Assembly: GCF_048403405.1 (NCBI RefSeq) | Contig: NZ_CP183129.1 | Strand: one strand, 5' to 3' | From: Escherichia coli | Lineage (GTDB): Bacteria > Pseudomonadota > Gammaproteobacteria > Enterobacterales > Enterobacteriaceae | DNA length: 64,000 bases | Shown here: positions 58,605 through 64,000 of the stretch, piece after piece | Numbering within the stretch: the stretch's first letter is position 1 | How the letters are laid out: each line of letters begins with the position of its first letter | The notes under the pieces: model-generated | Seen by the model: only the letters and a program-made list of their open reading frames with translations | The model's database searches: none | Told to the model about the DNA's origin: nothing | Translations under genes and position numbers: made by a program

Positions 58605-58775
58605 TGTTTTTATTTATTCAATGAATTTATATTTCGTTGAATAGATAACATTTTCATGAATATTAGATGCTGGTTTTGTGACTGATGTCGAATATTTGAA
58701 TGTCGGCTTGAAAAATAAGCCGACCATCTCTTTAATTAAACACAATTCCGTGTAATGTATACACATTAGTTAATC

Positions 58776-58804
58776 ATCTTGTAACTGTTAAATCAGGCAA
58801 GGCA
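58776..58804 (+). promoter_or_regulatory. RAT-like (ribonucleic antiterminator) element overlapping the 5' arm of the leader terminator
   Basis: ATCTTGTAACTGTTAAATCAGGCAAGGCA resembles the recalled BglG/SacY-type RAT consensus (GGATTGTTACTG.TAAAGCAGGCAAAACC) and overlaps the terminator left arm GGCAAGGCA. Confidence 0.45.
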
Positions 58805-58850
58805 ATGTTTGAAGTAATTATTACTTCTGACGTGCCTTGCCTTTTTTTTT
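58796..58850 (+). terminator. Leader intrinsic terminator immediately upstream of the antiterminator gene
   Basis: 9-bp stem GGCAAGGCA / TGCCTTGCC enclosing an inner GAAGT/ACTTC hairpin, followed by T9 (58842-58850); ends 11 nt before the ATG at 58862. Confidence 0.7.
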
Positions 58851-58861
58851 GGAGTCATGGA

Positions 58862-59686
58862 ATGATCATCGAAAAAGTCATGAACAATAATTGTGTACAG
58901 GCATCGATGAATGGACAGGAGGTTATCATTTCTGGACCTGGCGTCGGTTACAACAAAAAATATGGAATGTCGGTCCCTGAGCATCCGGCTAACCGGATTT
59001 TTTATGTCAGAAATGAACAAAAAAACAAACTCTATAAATTGATTGAACATGTAGATATTGAGTATGTGTTTGTTGCCGAAAAAATAGTGCAATATGCGGA
59101 GAAAAATCTCGAAAAAAATCTCAATCCATCGCTACTATTGATTCTTGCGGATCACATTTCGAATGCAATATCCCGAGTCGCTTCAGGTATACAAATTAAT
59201 AATGTTTTCCTTGATGAAATCAAAGCGTTGTACAAAGCAGAATATGCAATAAGCCGGGATGCATTAACCATCATCAATGAGCAATTTAGCTTTCAACTTC
59301 CGGATGATGAGATTGGTTTTATTGCATTGCATATTTTAAATAACTATGAAAATTCATCTGATTATGAATCGGTACGGATTATTGAATTATCTCAAAAAAT
59401 CACGGAGATTATCGAGGGTATTTATAACCGAAAGGTGGACAGAAGTTCATTTAACTATTCAAGATTTATGATGCACCTTAAGTATTTTTCTAATCGAGTT
59501 TTATGTAATGAAAAGATAAAACAGAAAGATATTGGTGACATCTATGAGCAGTTTCTTGAGAAAGACATCCTGTTACAGCGCGCAATTCATGAAATTGAAA
59601 GGTATCTGTATGCCACTTTTAAATATGAATTAATTTTAGAAGAAAAACTATATCTCTCAATTCGTACCAAAGTATTAATGGACTAA
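58862..59686 (+). CDS. BglG/LicT-family PRD-containing transcription antiterminator
   Basis: 275 aa from ATG 58862 (GGAG upstream); N-terminal CAT RNA-binding domain (MIIEKVMNNNCVQASMNGQEVIISGPGVGY) and two PRD-like domains with conserved His (LILADHISNAISR; IGFIALHILN). The ORF-track start at 58805 runs through the terminator and is rejected. Confidence 0.8.
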   Translation: MIIEKVMNNNCVQASMNGQEVIISGPGVGYNKKYGMSVPEHPANRIFYVRNEQKNKLYKLIEHVDIEYVFVAEKIVQYAEKNLEKNLNPSLLLILADHISNAISRVASGIQINNVFLDEIKALYKAEYAISRDALTIINEQFSFQLPDDEIGFIALHILNNYENSSDYESVRIIELSQKITEIIEGIYNRKVDRSSFNYSRFMMHLKYFSNRVLCNEKIKQKDIGDIYEQFLEKDILLQRAIHEIERYLYATFKYELILEEKLYLSIRTKVLMD

Positions 59687-61298: not shown

Positions 61299-62482
61299 TG
61301 AATGTTTTTAATACCCCTATCTCCCGTAAAGGAACATATTGCACTCAATGGGACTTTTGTGAGGACAGATTTGGTGTAAAAGATGTATTACCATTTTCTA
61401 TTTCAGATATGGATCTTCCGATACCGGAAGCTATCATCAGGGCATTAAAAAAACGCCTGGAACACCCGATTTTAGGGTACAGCCGTTGGCAGCATGATGA
61501 TTATCTGAATGCGATAGTCAATTGGTATCATCAACAATATAAAACTGAAATAAAACCAGAATGGATCACCTATAGCCCAAGTGTGATGTATTCAATTGCT
61601 AAGGCAATAGAGTTATTAACATTGAATGGAGATAACATTCTCATTTTTACGCCTGTTTATAACGCATTTTTTGATGTAATTAAACAAAGTGGTCGAAATA
61701 TGCTAACAACCTCTTTGAATAAAGAAAATGAGAGAGGCTACGCTATCAACTGGCAAGATTTTGAGCTAAAAATTAAAAGCGCGAAGATGGTGTTATTGTG
61801 TAATCCTCATAACCCGACAGGAACCGTCTGGTCGGAAGAAGATCTCTTCAAAATCGCTGCAAGCTGCGCAAAACAAAAAATCTGGCTATGTTCAGATGAA
61901 ATTCACAGTGATTTTGTTTTTAACCATGGTTTCACGTCCGCGTTAAAAATAAAAAATGACAAAGTAGTGGTGTTAAATTCGATTTCGAAAACATTTAATG
62001 TTCCTGCACTAACAGGATCATATATGATATCCGCTGACCAGGATTTTAATGATAAGTTTAGAACGATATCAAGATATCGCGATTTTGTAAACTCACCATC
62101 TATATTGAATGTGATTGCTACCATTGTTGCTTATAACGAATGTGAAGAATGGTTAAAGTCGTTAAAGGATCATATTGCCTCTAACATTCAATTTACCCAG
62201 CAGTATTTGAATGAAAATATTCCAGAATTGATCGTGAGGTCCGCTGAGGGTTGCTATTTTTCGTGGATAGATTGCTCGGCCATTGGCTATCCCTTTGATA
62301 AATTTTACCGACGATTAATTGATGAAGGGAAAGTGGGTATTATGGCGGGGTATGTTTATGGTACGGAAGGTGAGGGCTATCTGCGTCTGAATCTGGCCTG
62401 CGGTCGAGAAAAATTATATATGGGGCTTGTGCGCCTTGCGAGTGTAATTAAAAATATTAATCAGGAAAAAGAAAATGAATAA
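61298..62482 (+). CDS. PLP-dependent C-S lyase / aminotransferase class I-II (MalY/PatB-like)
   Basis: 394 aa; start overlaps the EIICB stop (TGATG); PLP-lysine motif SISKTFN and class-I aminotransferase fold motifs (LCNPHNPTG). Confidence 0.8.
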   Translation: MNVFNTPISRKGTYCTQWDFCEDRFGVKDVLPFSISDMDLPIPEAIIRALKKRLEHPILGYSRWQHDDYLNAIVNWYHQQYKTEIKPEWITYSPSVMYSIAKAIELLTLNGDNILIFTPVYNAFFDVIKQSGRNMLTTSLNKENERGYAINWQDFELKIKSAKMVLLCNPHNPTGTVWSEEDLFKIAASCAKQKIWLCSDEIHSDFVFNHGFTSALKIKNDKVVVLNSISKTFNVPALTGSYMISADQDFNDKFRTISRYRDFVNSPSILNVIATIVAYNECEEWLKSLKDHIASNIQFTQQYLNENIPELIVRSAEGCYFSWIDCSAIGYPFDKFYRRLIDEGKVGIMAGYVYGTEGEGYLRLNLACGREKLYMGLVRLASVIKNINQEKENE

Positions 62483-63071
62483 CTCGGAACTTATACATCT
62501 TATTAAACATTTTATGCGTAACGAACATAAGGCCGTTGAAGAGGTTATTGATTCCCCACTTTCTGAAGTCGCTAATTTAATTAAAGTATTACAATCTTGT
62601 CAGGGTAAAGTTGTTTTTATTGGTGTTGGTAAGTCCGGTATTATTGCCAGAAAACTCGCAGCAACATTTGCCAGTACCGGAACTCCCTCGTTTTTTGTTC
62701 ACGGTACGGAAGCGGTACACGGCGACCTTGGAATGGTGGCGAAAGACGATGTTGTTATTCTTATTTCAAACAGTGGTGAGACGGCGGAAATCCTGGCGAC
62801 ACTGCCTAGTCTGAAAAGAATGGGTAATTATTTGATCTCTTTTACCCGCAGTCATCACTCATCGCTTGCGATAAGTTGTGATTTATCTGTTGAAATCCCC
62901 GTCAAAAGTGAGGCGGATAATTTAGGTTTAGCACCGTCATGCTCGTCTACTGTTGTTCTGGTTGTTGGTGATGCGGTGGCGCTTGCACTCTCCGAATTGA
63001 AAAAATTTACTCGTGCCGATTTCGGCTTATATCATCCAGGAGGTGCACTCGGCATTAAAGCAAATTCATAA
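62475..63071 (+). CDS. SIS-domain sugar-phosphate isomerase-like protein (single SIS domain)
   Basis: 198 aa; SIS signature VVFIGVGKSGIIARKLAATFASTG...ILISNSGET; overlaps the upstream stop by 8 nt. Confidence 0.75.
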   Translation: MNNSELIHLIKHFMRNEHKAVEEVIDSPLSEVANLIKVLQSCQGKVVFIGVGKSGIIARKLAATFASTGTPSFFVHGTEAVHGDLGMVAKDDVVILISNSGETAEILATLPSLKRMGNYLISFTRSHHSSLAISCDLSVEIPVKSEADNLGLAPSCSSTVVLVVGDAVALALSELKKFTRADFGLYHPGGALGIKANS

Positions 63072-63142
63072 TTTCAAAATATAAATACAGTAACCGGTCA
63101 CGCCATCTTTTGGGGTGGCGTTCATTGAAGTGAGTGTCAGCT

Positions 63143-64000
63143 ATGAAAAATGTTCTGGTCACCGTCCCCAGCTTTTCAGCACGCTGTGTTTCCGCCAGCA
63201 AGTTGCTAAGAGAGAATAATTTTAATCTTATTATTAAGAATAATGTGGAGCATCTGCTTAAATCAGAATCCACTGCATTACGAGAATCTATTTGCGCGGT
63301 CATCGCCGGAAAAGATTGTTATCAGGCGGATACGCTATCATTGCTGCCTGGTGTGAAAATAATATCGAGATTCGGGACGGGGATAGACAATATTGATCTT
63401 CGTGCGGCACAGCAATCCGGTATTGTAGTCAAAAATGCGGTTGGGATTAATTCAAATGCGGTTGCGGAATTTATCATTGGACTTATCTTTGCGAGCATGA
63501 GAAATATTCCTGGCAGCTATCATGCGATGCAAAATGGCTACTGGGTTGAGTCGCATGGCTGTGAATTACAAGGGAAACGGATTGGCCTGGTTGGCTACGG
63601 TAATATAGGTAAAACCCTGGCGAAAAGGTTGTCTGGTTTTGATGTTGAGCTTTTAGCTTTTGACAAACAACCCGATTTTCAGGCCGCTGGCAAAGATGGA
63701 GTTCAGTTTGTATCAATTGAAGATATCTTTATGCAGTCGCATGTCATCATTGTTCTTTTACCTTTTTCTCCTGAGCTGGAGAACTTCATTAGTCATAAAT
63801 ATTTGTCAATGATGCGCAATGGTGCTCTGATCATCAATGCCGCAAGGGGAAAGTTGCTGGATGAGGGCGCTTTACTTCAGGTGATTGAAGAACGAAATGT
63901 GTTTGCGGCGCTGGATGTGTTTAGCTCTGAACCGTTGGCGCAATTTAGCCCACTGCTACATGCCAAAAATATCATTACAACGCCGCATATTGCGGCCGCC
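63143..64000 (+). CDS. D-isomer-specific 2-hydroxyacid dehydrogenase family protein, 3' partial at window edge
   Basis: Open frame from ATG 63143 to the window end; NAD-binding GKRIGLVGYGNIGKTLAKRL and the downstream conserved region (LLHAKNIITTPHIAAA). Missing from the ORF track because no stop lies inside the window. Confidence 0.75.
   Translation, partial: MKNVLVTVPSFSARCVSASKLLRENNFNLIIKNNVEHLLKSESTALRESICAVIAGKDCYQADTLSLLPGVKIISRFGTGIDNIDLRAAQQSGIVVKNAVGINSNAVAEFIIGLIFASMRNIPGSYHAMQNGYWVESHGCELQGKRIGLVGYGNIGKTLAKRLSGFDVELLAFDKQPDFQAAGKDGVQFVSIEDIFMQSHVIIVLLPFSPELENFISHKYLSMMRNGALIINAARGKLLDEGALLQVIEERNVFAALDVFSSEPLAQFSPLLHAKNIITTPHIAAA

Follow-up and report, generated by a model that had tools for sequence, protein, structure and literature searches.

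The window analysed was a stretch of 64,000 nt of Escherichia coli DNA, and five genes were found on its plus strand after amiC, between position 58605 and the window end. They encoded a transcription antiterminator (pafR), a PTS transporter (pafP), a PLP-dependent lyase, a SIS-domain isomerase, and a D-2-hydroxyacid dehydrogenase. The intergenic spacing was +31, −1, −8, and +71 nt. GC content fell from 0.52–0.56 in the flanking recD/argA/amiC genes to 0.31–0.46 in the cluster, with 0.34, 0.44, 0.37, 0.42, and 0.44 for genes 1 to 5. A preliminary description made from the sequence alone had claimed a co-oriented, tightly packed, accessory cluster of low GC with these five gene identities. The arrangement and the horizontally acquired nature were confirmed, and the identities were upheld, well above chance level, by profile matches to LicT, MalX-type IIBC, PatB C-S lyase, the SIS half of KdsD, and PGDH.

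Genes of the cluster and edges of the islet

The first gene, pafR (58862–59686, plus strand), encoded a BglG/LicT-family antiterminator of 274 aa. Its start was set at 58862 rather than at 58805, where the listed open reading frame began, since MIIEKV at this position fits the N-terminus of the family and this start agrees with the RefSeq annotation. A CAT RNA-binding domain was followed by PRD1 and PRD2, the domain order of BglG, SacY, and LicT, and orthologues carried Pfam CAT_RBD and PRD. The match to the NCBIfam LicT profile was full length (residues 1–268, 2.6e-68) and below the equivalog cut-off. In the PDB, it matched the PRDs of LicT (9e-32) and the CAT-PRD1 structure of a BglG-family protein (7e-31). 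Three of the four PRD histidines were kept (DHI, ALHI, and MHLK). The fourth, at the position of LicT H269, was Arg in Escherichia and Atlantibacter PafR and His in Enterobacter and clostridial orthologues; therefore, HPr control of PafR may differ from that of LicT.

The second gene, pafP (59718–61298, plus strand), encoded a glucose-family PTS EIICB of the MalX branch without an EIIA domain, with the EIIB cysteine within the motif NCVTRLR. It matched the TIGR02004 malX profile at 4.9e-162, with 540 bits against a cut-off of 632 bits, and was 43% identical to K-12 MalX. PafP belonged to a distinct clade whose members shared at least 60% identity, followed by a gap down to 46%. By profile score and identity, PafP is classed as a MalX relative, not an equivalog.

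The third gene (61298–62482, plus strand) encoded a predicted PLP-dependent C-S (beta) lyase of the PatB/MalY family (profile 1e-108). Its score against TIGR04350 was 363.7 bits, over the 340-bit cut-off, which placed it in the family. The best solved relative was E. coli MalY (1d2f, 2.7e-86), to which it was 36% identical. All 12 aligned relatives kept the PLP lysine of the SxSK motif (here SISK) along with the motifs of the family.

The fourth gene (62475–63071, plus strand) encoded a single-SIS-domain protein that matched PDB 5uqi/5vhu over 198 aa (1.3e-121), from which it differed at about 6 positions (about 97% identity). KdsD was matched only in its SIS half (model positions 37–201 of 328, 1.1e-58), and the protein ended at residue 198. 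The tandem CBS pair that follows the SIS domain in KpsF/GutQ/KdsD was absent, as in the known CBS-less variant c3406. c3406 is reported to be an arabinose-5-phosphate (A5P) isomerase interconverting A5P and ribulose-5-phosphate (Ru5P) (Mosberg 2011). By its near-identity to c3406, the window protein is assigned as an A5P isomerase.

The fifth gene (63143–64000, plus strand) was cut by the window end. In a genome 100% identical over 58605–64000 (L001 24539–25486), the full gene was 948 nt (315 aa) and ended 90 nt past the window. The preliminary description had the operon running on beyond the window, and this was not borne out, since the window lacks no more than these 90 nt of gene 5. The product resembled a short PGDH without the ACT domain (PGDH profile 3.7e-63). 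It scored 214 bits against the 454-bit cut-off of TIGR01327, over positions 46–309 of 525, and the best PDB match was 1wwk (2.3e-49). The sequence contained a GxGxxG NAD-binding motif and catalytic residues at the R/E/H positions. The protein is best classed by these matches as a generic D-2-hydroxyacid dehydrogenase. Among the copies of the cluster, the gene was found in those of Escherichia, Citrobacter, and Atlantibacter alone, and was broken in the last.

The islet was bounded by the stop codon of amiC on one side and by the 3' end of tRNA-Met on the other. When K-12, the window, the identical genome, and CFT073 were compared, the left edge fell at 58605, where K-12 similarity was lost immediately past the stop codon; the entire 73-bp amiC–metV spacer of K-12 was replaced. 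On the 3' side, genomes 100% identical over 58605–64000 showed the end of gene 5, 78 nt, three tRNA-Met genes (metV/W/Z) on the opposite strand, and then mltA. A hairpin downstream of gene 5 was common with the opposite-strand metV gene. The gap between the isomerase and dehydrogenase genes held no significant hairpin or T-run, in keeping with a single operon. About 100 nt past the amiC stop codon, a GC-rich hairpin on the plus strand, GTCGGCTTGAAAAATAAGCCGAC (58702–58724), matched the terminator-like scan and was also present in CFT073. It could be a replacement amiC terminator with a weak T-tail.

RAT element and terminator in the leader

The canonical consensus of the ribonucleic antiterminator (RAT) is drawn from the bgl, sacB, licS, and ptsG leaders. 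The motif TTGTWACTG-N(3-9)-CAGGCA had a single match in the 64 kb, with 0.01 expected. This match, CTTGTAACTGTTAAATCAGGCAAG (58778–58801, plus strand), lay upstream of pafR and folded with −6.3 kcal/mol into the two helices typical of a RAT; it is the predicted PafR binding site. It overlapped an intrinsic terminator (58795–58850, plus strand) composed of a long hairpin and T9, the 5' arm of which shared 7 nt (58795–58801) with the RAT. Between the end of the terminator and the start codon of pafR lay 11 nt with a GGAG Shine-Dalgarno sequence. The fold of 58760–58862 had an energy of −30.7 kcal/mol (z = −4.5), and none of 200 shuffles was as stable. BglG/SacY/LicT systems have the same leader arrangement, in which RAT and intrinsic terminator overlap. 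No sigma-70-like promoter upstream of the RAT passed the scan.

The position of RAT and terminator was conserved across six genera, and the terminator arms varied in sequence between genera with complementarity kept. Citrobacter, Atlantibacter, Enterobacter, and Enterococcus termitis had the RAT conserved upstream of the antiterminator gene, and one of its pairs was compensatory. The covariation was not significant, as 83 of 500 shuffles reached the observed value with only 4 distinct sequences. In clostridial orthologues, canonical RAT–terminator units lay between the antiterminator and EIICB genes.

Identity of the operon and related systems

The cluster also adjoins amiC in uropathogenic E. 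coli CFT073 (locus L002 24591–29820), where gene set and order were identical and a leader RAT was present. Protein identity was 96.7, 98.3, 86.7, 97.0, and 95.9% for genes 1 to 5. Nucleotide identity was 82–93% in a diverged patch running from the 3' end of pafP through the lyase gene, against 97–99% elsewhere. In CFT073, the T6SS of PAI-metV lies beyond the five genes and separates the operon from metV, whereas in the lineage of the window the bare islet abuts tRNA-Met. The cluster was present in 1689 of 5426 complete E. coli genomes; the bare-islet layout was found in 595 of the 1689 carriers. Genes 1 and 2 are pafR and pafP (Baum 2014). Genes c3405–c3410, labelled 'PTS maltose/glucose specific', have been assigned to PAI-CFT073-metV (PMC2831201), and pafR/pafP have been described as genes of the metV island, with PafR termed an antiterminator or regulator (PMC8882828, PMC4468546, and PMC9981650). 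An identical set of five ORFs is listed for BEN2908 in a 2026 paper.

Therefore, the locus is very probably the metV-island operon c3405–c3410 of E. coli, which here forms a bare islet of 5.5 kb flanked by amiC and the tRNA genes metZWV. Its genes are pafR, pafP, a PatB/MalY-type PLP lyase, the c3406 A5P isomerase, and a PGDH-like dehydrogenase, with a catabolic role and PafR–RAT regulation inferred. The novelty implied by the preliminary description did not stand: the cluster has been described already, pafR and pafP have been studied in mouse urinary tract infection (UTI), and c3406 has been characterised with a crystal structure. Deletion of c3406 reportedly did not lower virulence (Mosberg 2011), so not every operon gene contributes to the in vivo phenotype. 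The preliminary description had named a characterised operon with a known substrate as its refutation, and this was found in half, as a described and partly characterised operon. It was right that the sequence does not disclose the substrate. The present analysis adds the RAT overlapping a strong terminator upstream of pafR, a four-gene core syntenic in Firmicutes, the range of the dehydrogenase, and the MalX-type EIICB before the lyase.

The order antiterminator, EIICB, lyase, and SIS protein was syntenic at 11 species-level loci in Enterobacteriaceae and Firmicutes, including Clostridioides difficile. A MalX-family EIICB lay immediately upstream of the PatB/MalY lyase at 68 of 80 species-level lyase loci. 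This pairing spanned Proteobacteria, Firmicutes, Fusobacteria, and Spirochaetes, with four regulator types. The Firmicute loci had an adjacent glucose-class EIIA gene. No glycosidase gene was present within or beside the cluster at the seven Paf-type loci with gene tables.

Four known systems were compared with the operon. In K-12 malX–malY, a glucose-family EIICB gene is also followed directly by a PatB/MalY PLP C-S lyase gene, and malXY is a long-standing orphan, as is c3405–10. However, identity was only 43% (EIICB) and 36% (lyase), malXY is controlled by MalI, a LacI-type repressor, instead of a PRD antiterminator, and it lacks the SIS isomerase and the dehydrogenase. In C. difficile CD3027–CD3031, the antiterminator, EIICB, MalY-type lyase, and single-SIS protein are co-linear with those of the window, with identities of 35%, 69%, 52%, and 49%. 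The C. difficile operon differs in its own EIIA gene, in the absence of a dehydrogenase, and in a RAT–terminator between regulator and transporter with four tandem 104-nt units.

E. coli bgl (BglG/BglF) and Bacillus subtilis LicT/SacY share the PRD antiterminator, a leader RAT overlapping an intrinsic terminator before the regulator gene, and a cognate EII as sensor, the last being predicted for paf. In contrast to these systems, the paf transporter is of the glucose/MalX branch rather than the beta-glucoside branch, a phospho-glycosidase is absent, one PRD2 histidine is replaced by Arg, and the gap of only 31 nt between regulator and transporter holds no second RAT–terminator. The murP–murQ pair, which serves N-acetylmuramic acid, also joins a glucose-family EIICB to a SIS-domain enzyme (in this case an etherase) acting on the phosphorylated import product without a glycosidase. 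It is a useful analogy for the processing of a substituted sugar, but the paf SIS protein matched MurQ marginally (~1e-7) against 1e-58 for KdsD, its type has measured A5P isomerase activity, and paf has an additional PLP lyase.

Regulation, substrate, and alternative roles

The anatomy of the leader was read from the sequence, and the mechanism proposed here is modelled on the BglG/LicT paradigm. Transcription would start in the AT-rich spacer downstream of amiC, and by default transcripts would end at the strong terminator before pafR. With substrate absent, PafP would phosphorylate PRD1 of PafR and keep it inactive. With substrate present, the phosphate of PafP would go to the substrate, and unphosphorylated PafR could bind the RAT, which overlaps the 5' arm of the terminator. 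Polymerase would then read through all five genes. Since pafR lies behind its own terminator, a positive feedback loop is predicted. PafR is reportedly able to act as an antiterminator (Baum 2014). PafP must use a glucose-class EIIA because it has no EIIA domain; the partner in E. coli would be Crr, in place of the dedicated EIIA encoded beside the operon of the Firmicute orthologues.

In the proposed catabolic route, PafP would import and phosphorylate a sugar derivative, and the PLP lyase would take off an amino-acid-type moiety by beta-elimination. The isomerase would convert arabinose-5-phosphate to ribulose-5-phosphate, which would enter the pentose phosphate pathway, and the dehydrogenase may act on a 2-oxo or 2-hydroxy acid by-product. 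An amino-acid-conjugated sugar is a plausible substrate. The amino- or thio-substituted sugar suggested in the preliminary description gains some support from the EIICB–lyase pairing and from the lack of a glycosidase at the seven Paf-type loci.

A second glucose/maltose PTS, with PafP as a MalX paralogue and the lyase in the roles usually given to MalY (moonlighting regulator or general cysteine desulfhydrase) rather than as a step in breaking down the import product, is considered unlikely. MalX is the best family of the EIICB, and databases label it 'maltose/glucose-specific'; however, PafP fell under the MalX cut-off and formed its own clade. The C. difficile orthologue of the lyase, MalY (CD3029), has cysteine desulfhydrase activity in vitro, and the CD3029 operon and ptsG were strongly induced in rich-medium biofilms. 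Against this, the EIICB–lyase pairing across four phyla and four regulator types is hard to ascribe to an accident of regulation confined to the MalT system of E. coli, and Baum 2014 reportedly saw no in vitro inducing condition.

It is also improbable that the operon is mainly a sensory device, in which PafP senses a host signal, PafR antiterminates distant virulence, capsule, biofilm, and motility genes, and the three enzymes are minor. Consistent with such a role, three reports describe attenuation in mouse UTI on deletion of pafR or pafP, changes under ectopic PafR in how genes for virulence, biofilm, capsule, and motility are expressed, and paf expression apparently in vivo only (PMC8882828, PMC4468546, and PMC9981650). 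However, the microarray effects arose under overexpression, and the leader of the operon itself held the only RAT in the window. The enzymes were intact, and their synteny with regulator and transporter extended across distant phyla, including some organisms not known as pathogens, which argues for a metabolic unit.

A biosynthetic cluster whose extra isomerase supplies A5P for Kdo-containing LPS or capsule in infection would fit the isomerase activity reported for c3406 (Mosberg 2011), the similarity of the SIS protein to KdsD above other proteins, and the rise of capsule genes reported for PafR overexpression, but is highly improbable, since the four-gene cassette is shared by Clostridioides, Clostridium, Enterococcus, and Erysipelotrichaceae, none of which makes Kdo, a Gram-positive A5P isomerase is on record, a substrate-sensing PTS antiterminator typical of catabolic operons drives the genes, and E. 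coli already has KdsD and GutQ, plus KpsF in group 2 capsule strains.

With the catabolic reading preferred, a broader proposal can be made, though with little confidence. MalX-family EIICB and PatB/MalY lyase might form a widespread 'import, then beta-eliminate' route for sugar–amino-acid conjugates (e.g., S- or O-linked sugar-Cys/Ser), in which the PLP lyase replaces a phospho-glycosidase. The paf operon would be a variant funnelled through arabinose-5-phosphate, with a host-derived substrate of the urinary tract or gut. If true, this route would explain two orphans jointly, K-12 malXY and ExPEC c3405–10.

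Gene content, boundaries, and identity of the cluster

The core genes recD (+ strand), argA (− strand), and amiC (+ strand) occupied 53.9–58.6 kb of the window, with the amiC stop codon at 58604. ORF calling and translation gave five co-oriented ORFs after this stop, all on the + strand. The first gene, pafR (58862–59686), encoded a LicT/GlcT/BglG-type antiterminator (NCBIfam LicT, 2.6e-68, with PDB matches). The second, pafP (59718–61298), encoded a glucose-family EIICB nearest to MalX (NCBIfam, 4.9e-162, under the equivalog cut-off). The third product (61298–62482) was a PatB/MalY PLP C-S lyase, which scored 363.7 bits, over the 340-bit cut-off; its best solved relative in the PDB search was E. 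coli MalY (2.7e-86). The fourth (62475–63071) was a SIS protein of 198 aa, whose match covered the SIS half of KdsD/GutQ only. The fifth, from 63143 to beyond 64000, was a D-2-hydroxyacid dehydrogenase of 315 aa, similar to short phosphoglycerate dehydrogenases (NCBIfam, PDB). The NCBIfam and PDB searches upheld all five gene assignments of the preliminary description. The spacers between the genes were +31, −1, −8, and +71 nt. GC content was 0.31–0.46 in the cluster versus 0.52–0.56 in the core, with per-gene values from pafR to the dehydrogenase of 0.34, 0.44, 0.37, 0.42, and 0.44. The catalytic motifs were intact: the EIIB cysteine in NCVTRLR; the SxSK lysine of the lyase; and GxGxxG with the R/E/H positions of the dehydrogenase. 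The mechanical ORF of amiC began at 57261 (447 aa); RefSeq sets the start at 57351, 90 nt downstream (417 aa). The 30 extra residues of the longer version (57261–57350) precede the twin-arginine signal.

Many complete E. coli chromosomes were 100% identical to the segment 58605–64000. The cluster had been described as continuing past the window, which was not borne out: in one such genome, AR_0067, the dehydrogenase gene ended 90 nt past the window end, and 78 nt further three opposite-strand tRNA-Met genes began, with mltA after them. In comparison with K-12, similarity was lost just past the amiC stop codon and regained at the tRNA-Met 3′ end, the insert taking the place of the whole 73-bp amiC–metV spacer. 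The operon therefore consists of exactly five genes. Outside the window, on the same chromosome type, genes for a sugar ABC transporter, a kinase of the FGGY family, and a regulator of the LacI family interrupted the fucose regulon between fucI and fucA (AR_0067 locus, 37972–44179).

In uropathogenic CFT073, amiC was likewise adjoined by these five genes in unchanged order, with a type VI secretion cluster beyond them; this island is PAI-CFT073-metV. Protein identity between the window and CFT073 was 96.7, 98.3, 86.7, 97.0, and 95.9% from pafR to the dehydrogenase. The colinear set c3405–c3410 ("PTS system, maltose/glucose specific") is located in this island and was present in four of four UPEC examined (PMC2831201). 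The SIS protein is c3406, the 198-aa chain of PDB 5uqi/5vhu differing from it at about six positions, and the antiterminator and permease genes are pafR and pafP. According to a citing paper, Mosberg et al. reported arabinose-5-phosphate (A5P) isomerase activity of c3406. PafR is reported to have antiterminator activity, and PafR/PafP to be relevant in vivo. The same five ORFs appear in APEC BEN2908 with no function assigned (2026 genome paper). The cluster is thus almost certainly the paf/c3405–10 operon.

In uropathogenic E. coli the operon is a reported determinant of fitness, pafR and pafP deletions being attenuated in mouse UTI (Baum 2014, as described in a citing paper). Lloyd et al. in 2009 reportedly attributed the colonisation defect of a PAI-metV deletion to c3405–10, and Mosberg et al. 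are said to have found a single c3406 deletion not attenuated. Identification of the substrate would reveal a nutrient or signal used by these pathogens in the host. The operon description is more than 15 years old, and the genome scan in this study re-discovered a published locus, since publications already cover its island context, its UPEC association, the activity and structure of the isomerase, and the Bgl-like character of PafR/PafP. The additions made here are limited to the RAT/terminator anatomy of the leader, the definition of a four-gene core that is shared with Firmicutes, and the linkage of transporter with lyase across phyla.

Leader switch and PafR

The 257-nt spacer 3′ of amiC contained a single match to the core of the ribonucleic antiterminator element (RAT), TTGTAACTGTTAAATCAGGCA, at 58779–58799; it was the only match in the 64 kb, against 0.01 expected. 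The RAT variant of the pafR leader read TTGTAACTG...CAGGCAAG, with a terminator after it. Folded alone, the RAT took up the two-helix form with a stability of only −6.3 kcal/mol. It shared 7 nt with the 5′ arm of a long hairpin (58795–58842) followed by nine T's, the last paired T of the hairpin being the first of the T-run. This terminator fold reached −30.7 kcal/mol (z = −4.5; 0 of 200 shuffles as stable) and ended 11 nt ahead of the pafR start codon. It was missed by the automatic terminator scan because its loop exceeds 8 nt, and was recovered by folding. In a permissive Rfam scan of the locus the leader matched no curated RNA family, and the three tRNA-Met genes were the sole hits. A consensus scan upstream of the RAT gave no plus-strand sigma-70-like promoter.

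The same arrangement was found 5′ of the antiterminator gene in Citrobacter, Atlantibacter, two Enterobacter lineages, Enterococcus termitis, and Massilicoli. Across these genera the terminator arms varied in sequence yet remained complementary, and the RAT upper helix changed from CUG/CAG to CUA/UAG. The RAT covariation count gave 100% pairing with one compensatory pair among four distinct sequences; 83 of 500 shuffles did as well, which is not significant. The covariation is consistent with the predicted element and is not proof of it. In clostridial orthologues the RAT-terminator was positioned between the regulator and transporter genes, as one unit in Clostridium sp. KNHs214 and as four tandem near-identical units with a 104-nt period in Clostridioides difficile HC132 (L004 locus, 1177–1560). 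In the latter, four successive antiterminations would be needed before the transporter gene.

No terminator was present in the 31-nt pafR–pafP gap. A terminator or attenuator in the SIS–dehydrogenase spacer was rejected, as its hairpin did not exceed shuffled sequence in stability (z = −0.25) and had no T-run. The leader switch, the terminator-free pafR–pafP gap, and the unstructured SIS–dehydrogenase spacer support the prediction that the operon is transcribed as one autoregulated unit, with a lone RAT/terminator switch as its gate. The switch mechanism as a whole is considered likely.

Of the four PRD histidines, PafR retained three. At the fourth position Escherichia and Atlantibacter PafR had Arg, where Enterobacter and clostridial orthologues had His. 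The Arg codon lay at 59662–59664, in the C-terminal motif LSIRT, at the position of H269 in LicT, a residue at which HPr phosphorylates that protein. This replacement may alter carbon catabolite control of the regulator. By analogy with the BglG/LicT paradigm, PafR control would follow the same phosphorylation logic.

Distribution, mosaicism, and relatives

The cluster was present in 1689 of 5426 complete E. coli genomes (31%), at identity of at least 99% in 122 and at 90–95% in 1566. The window was 97–99% identical to CFT073 outside two diverged patches: 60950–62500, comprising the EIIB end and the entire lyase gene (82–93%), and a smaller one at 59250–59550 in pafR (87–91%). The locus is therefore mosaic, and the 90–95% band does not reflect uniform divergence. 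The patches indicate recombination between two allele lineages. Across genera the lyase was the fastest-diverging protein, with 67% identity to Atlantibacter versus 79–86% for the others. In 595 genomes the dehydrogenase gene joined tRNA-Met directly, as in the window, and the remainder had extra island DNA between them. E. coli E69 combined a CFT073-like lyase allele with the direct junction.

PafP formed a discrete clade, with identities of 98% in E. coli, 86% in Atlantibacter, 76–78% in Enterobacter, 68% in C. difficile, and 60–67% in other Firmicutes; below it was a gap down to generic MalX-type proteins at 46%. All seven Paf-type loci with gene tables had antiterminator, EIICB, lyase, and SIS genes in one order, and in none of the seven was a glycosidase found inside or adjoining the cluster. 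The Firmicute loci carried an extra glucose-class EIIA gene, which would fit PafP borrowing Crr in E. coli. The C. difficile orthologous locus was CD3027–CD3031. Its malY product is described as a cysteine desulfhydrase in vitro; the locus genes rank with those most strongly induced in biofilm, and the operon includes a gene described as essential and biofilm-induced.

Only Escherichia, Citrobacter (71% identical), and Atlantibacter were found to carry the dehydrogenase, and the conserved functional core is therefore four genes. In Citrobacter sp. MGH106 and FP75 the full five-gene cassette (about 5475–10925 of each locus) adjoined tRNA-Asp and not amiC/tRNA-Met; the tRNA site at which the cassette inserted therefore varies with the genus. 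In Atlantibacter hermannii it occupied the same amiC–metV site, with the dehydrogenase split into ORFs of 132 and 119 aa (L007 locus, 11436–12383), probably a pseudogene. On this distribution, the dehydrogenase is read as a later addition that accompanies the cassette from one enterobacterial tRNA site to another.

Transporter–lyase linkage and candidate pathway

A lyase-alignment scan with one genome per species gave 80 loci. A MalX-family EIICB was immediately upstream of the lyase in 68 of them: 11 were Paf-type and 57 had other regulators, while 12 had no MalX-type gene upstream. Three loci were assigned by hand from gene strings (L018 and L019 as Paf-type, L054 to the MalX–MalY group). 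The regulators in the 57 were MalI-type (25), RpiR (15), and Mga/PRD-activator-like (9), and the rest had none among the regulator types searched. The pairing occurred in Proteobacteria, Firmicutes, Fusobacteria, and Spirochaetes with four unrelated regulator types (BglG-type, MalI/LacI, RpiR, and Mga-like). Some of these neighbourhoods held peptidases (M20, M1) or N-glycan glycosidases (GH38, GH125, GH85).

The recurrence of the pairing across these four phyla is good evidence, from gene order, for a shared pathway of transporter and lyase and against MalY being no more than an accidental regulator. The amino- or thio-substituted sugar speculated upon in the preliminary description seems a reasonable candidate substrate, and the linkage strengthens it somewhat. 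PafP would phosphorylate a sugar derivative, and its activity would relieve PafR, which would bind the RAT so that transcription enters the operon. By beta-elimination the lyase would strip off a substituent of amino-acid type, A5P would be joined to the pentose phosphate pathway through the isomerase, and the dehydrogenase might handle a 2-oxo or 2-hydroxy acid. This enzymatic sequence is tentative and of low confidence. A SerA/SerC-like pair, in which the dehydrogenase and the PLP enzyme oxidise and transaminate a sugar acid, was rejected as the core mechanism because most orthologous cassettes lack the dehydrogenase and the PLP enzyme is a genuine lyase of the PatB family.

A plain glucose/maltose PTS with a moonlighting lyase would suit the MalX-like character of PafP; set beside the recurrent pairing with the lyase, it is rather unlikely. 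A chiefly sensory system controlling distant virulence genes was also considered, in view of the attenuation of pafR and pafP deletions in mouse UTI, and is less likely still. Biosynthetic A5P supply for Kdo or capsule, for which the isomerase would serve, is very improbable, being weakened by the occurrence of the cassette in Gram-positive bacteria without Kdo.

Among the papers available to the literature search, none gave a solved substrate for MalX/MalY. A general pathway of PTS import plus PLP beta-elimination for sugar–amino-acid conjugates is an unlikely reading; if true, it would account for K-12 malXY too.
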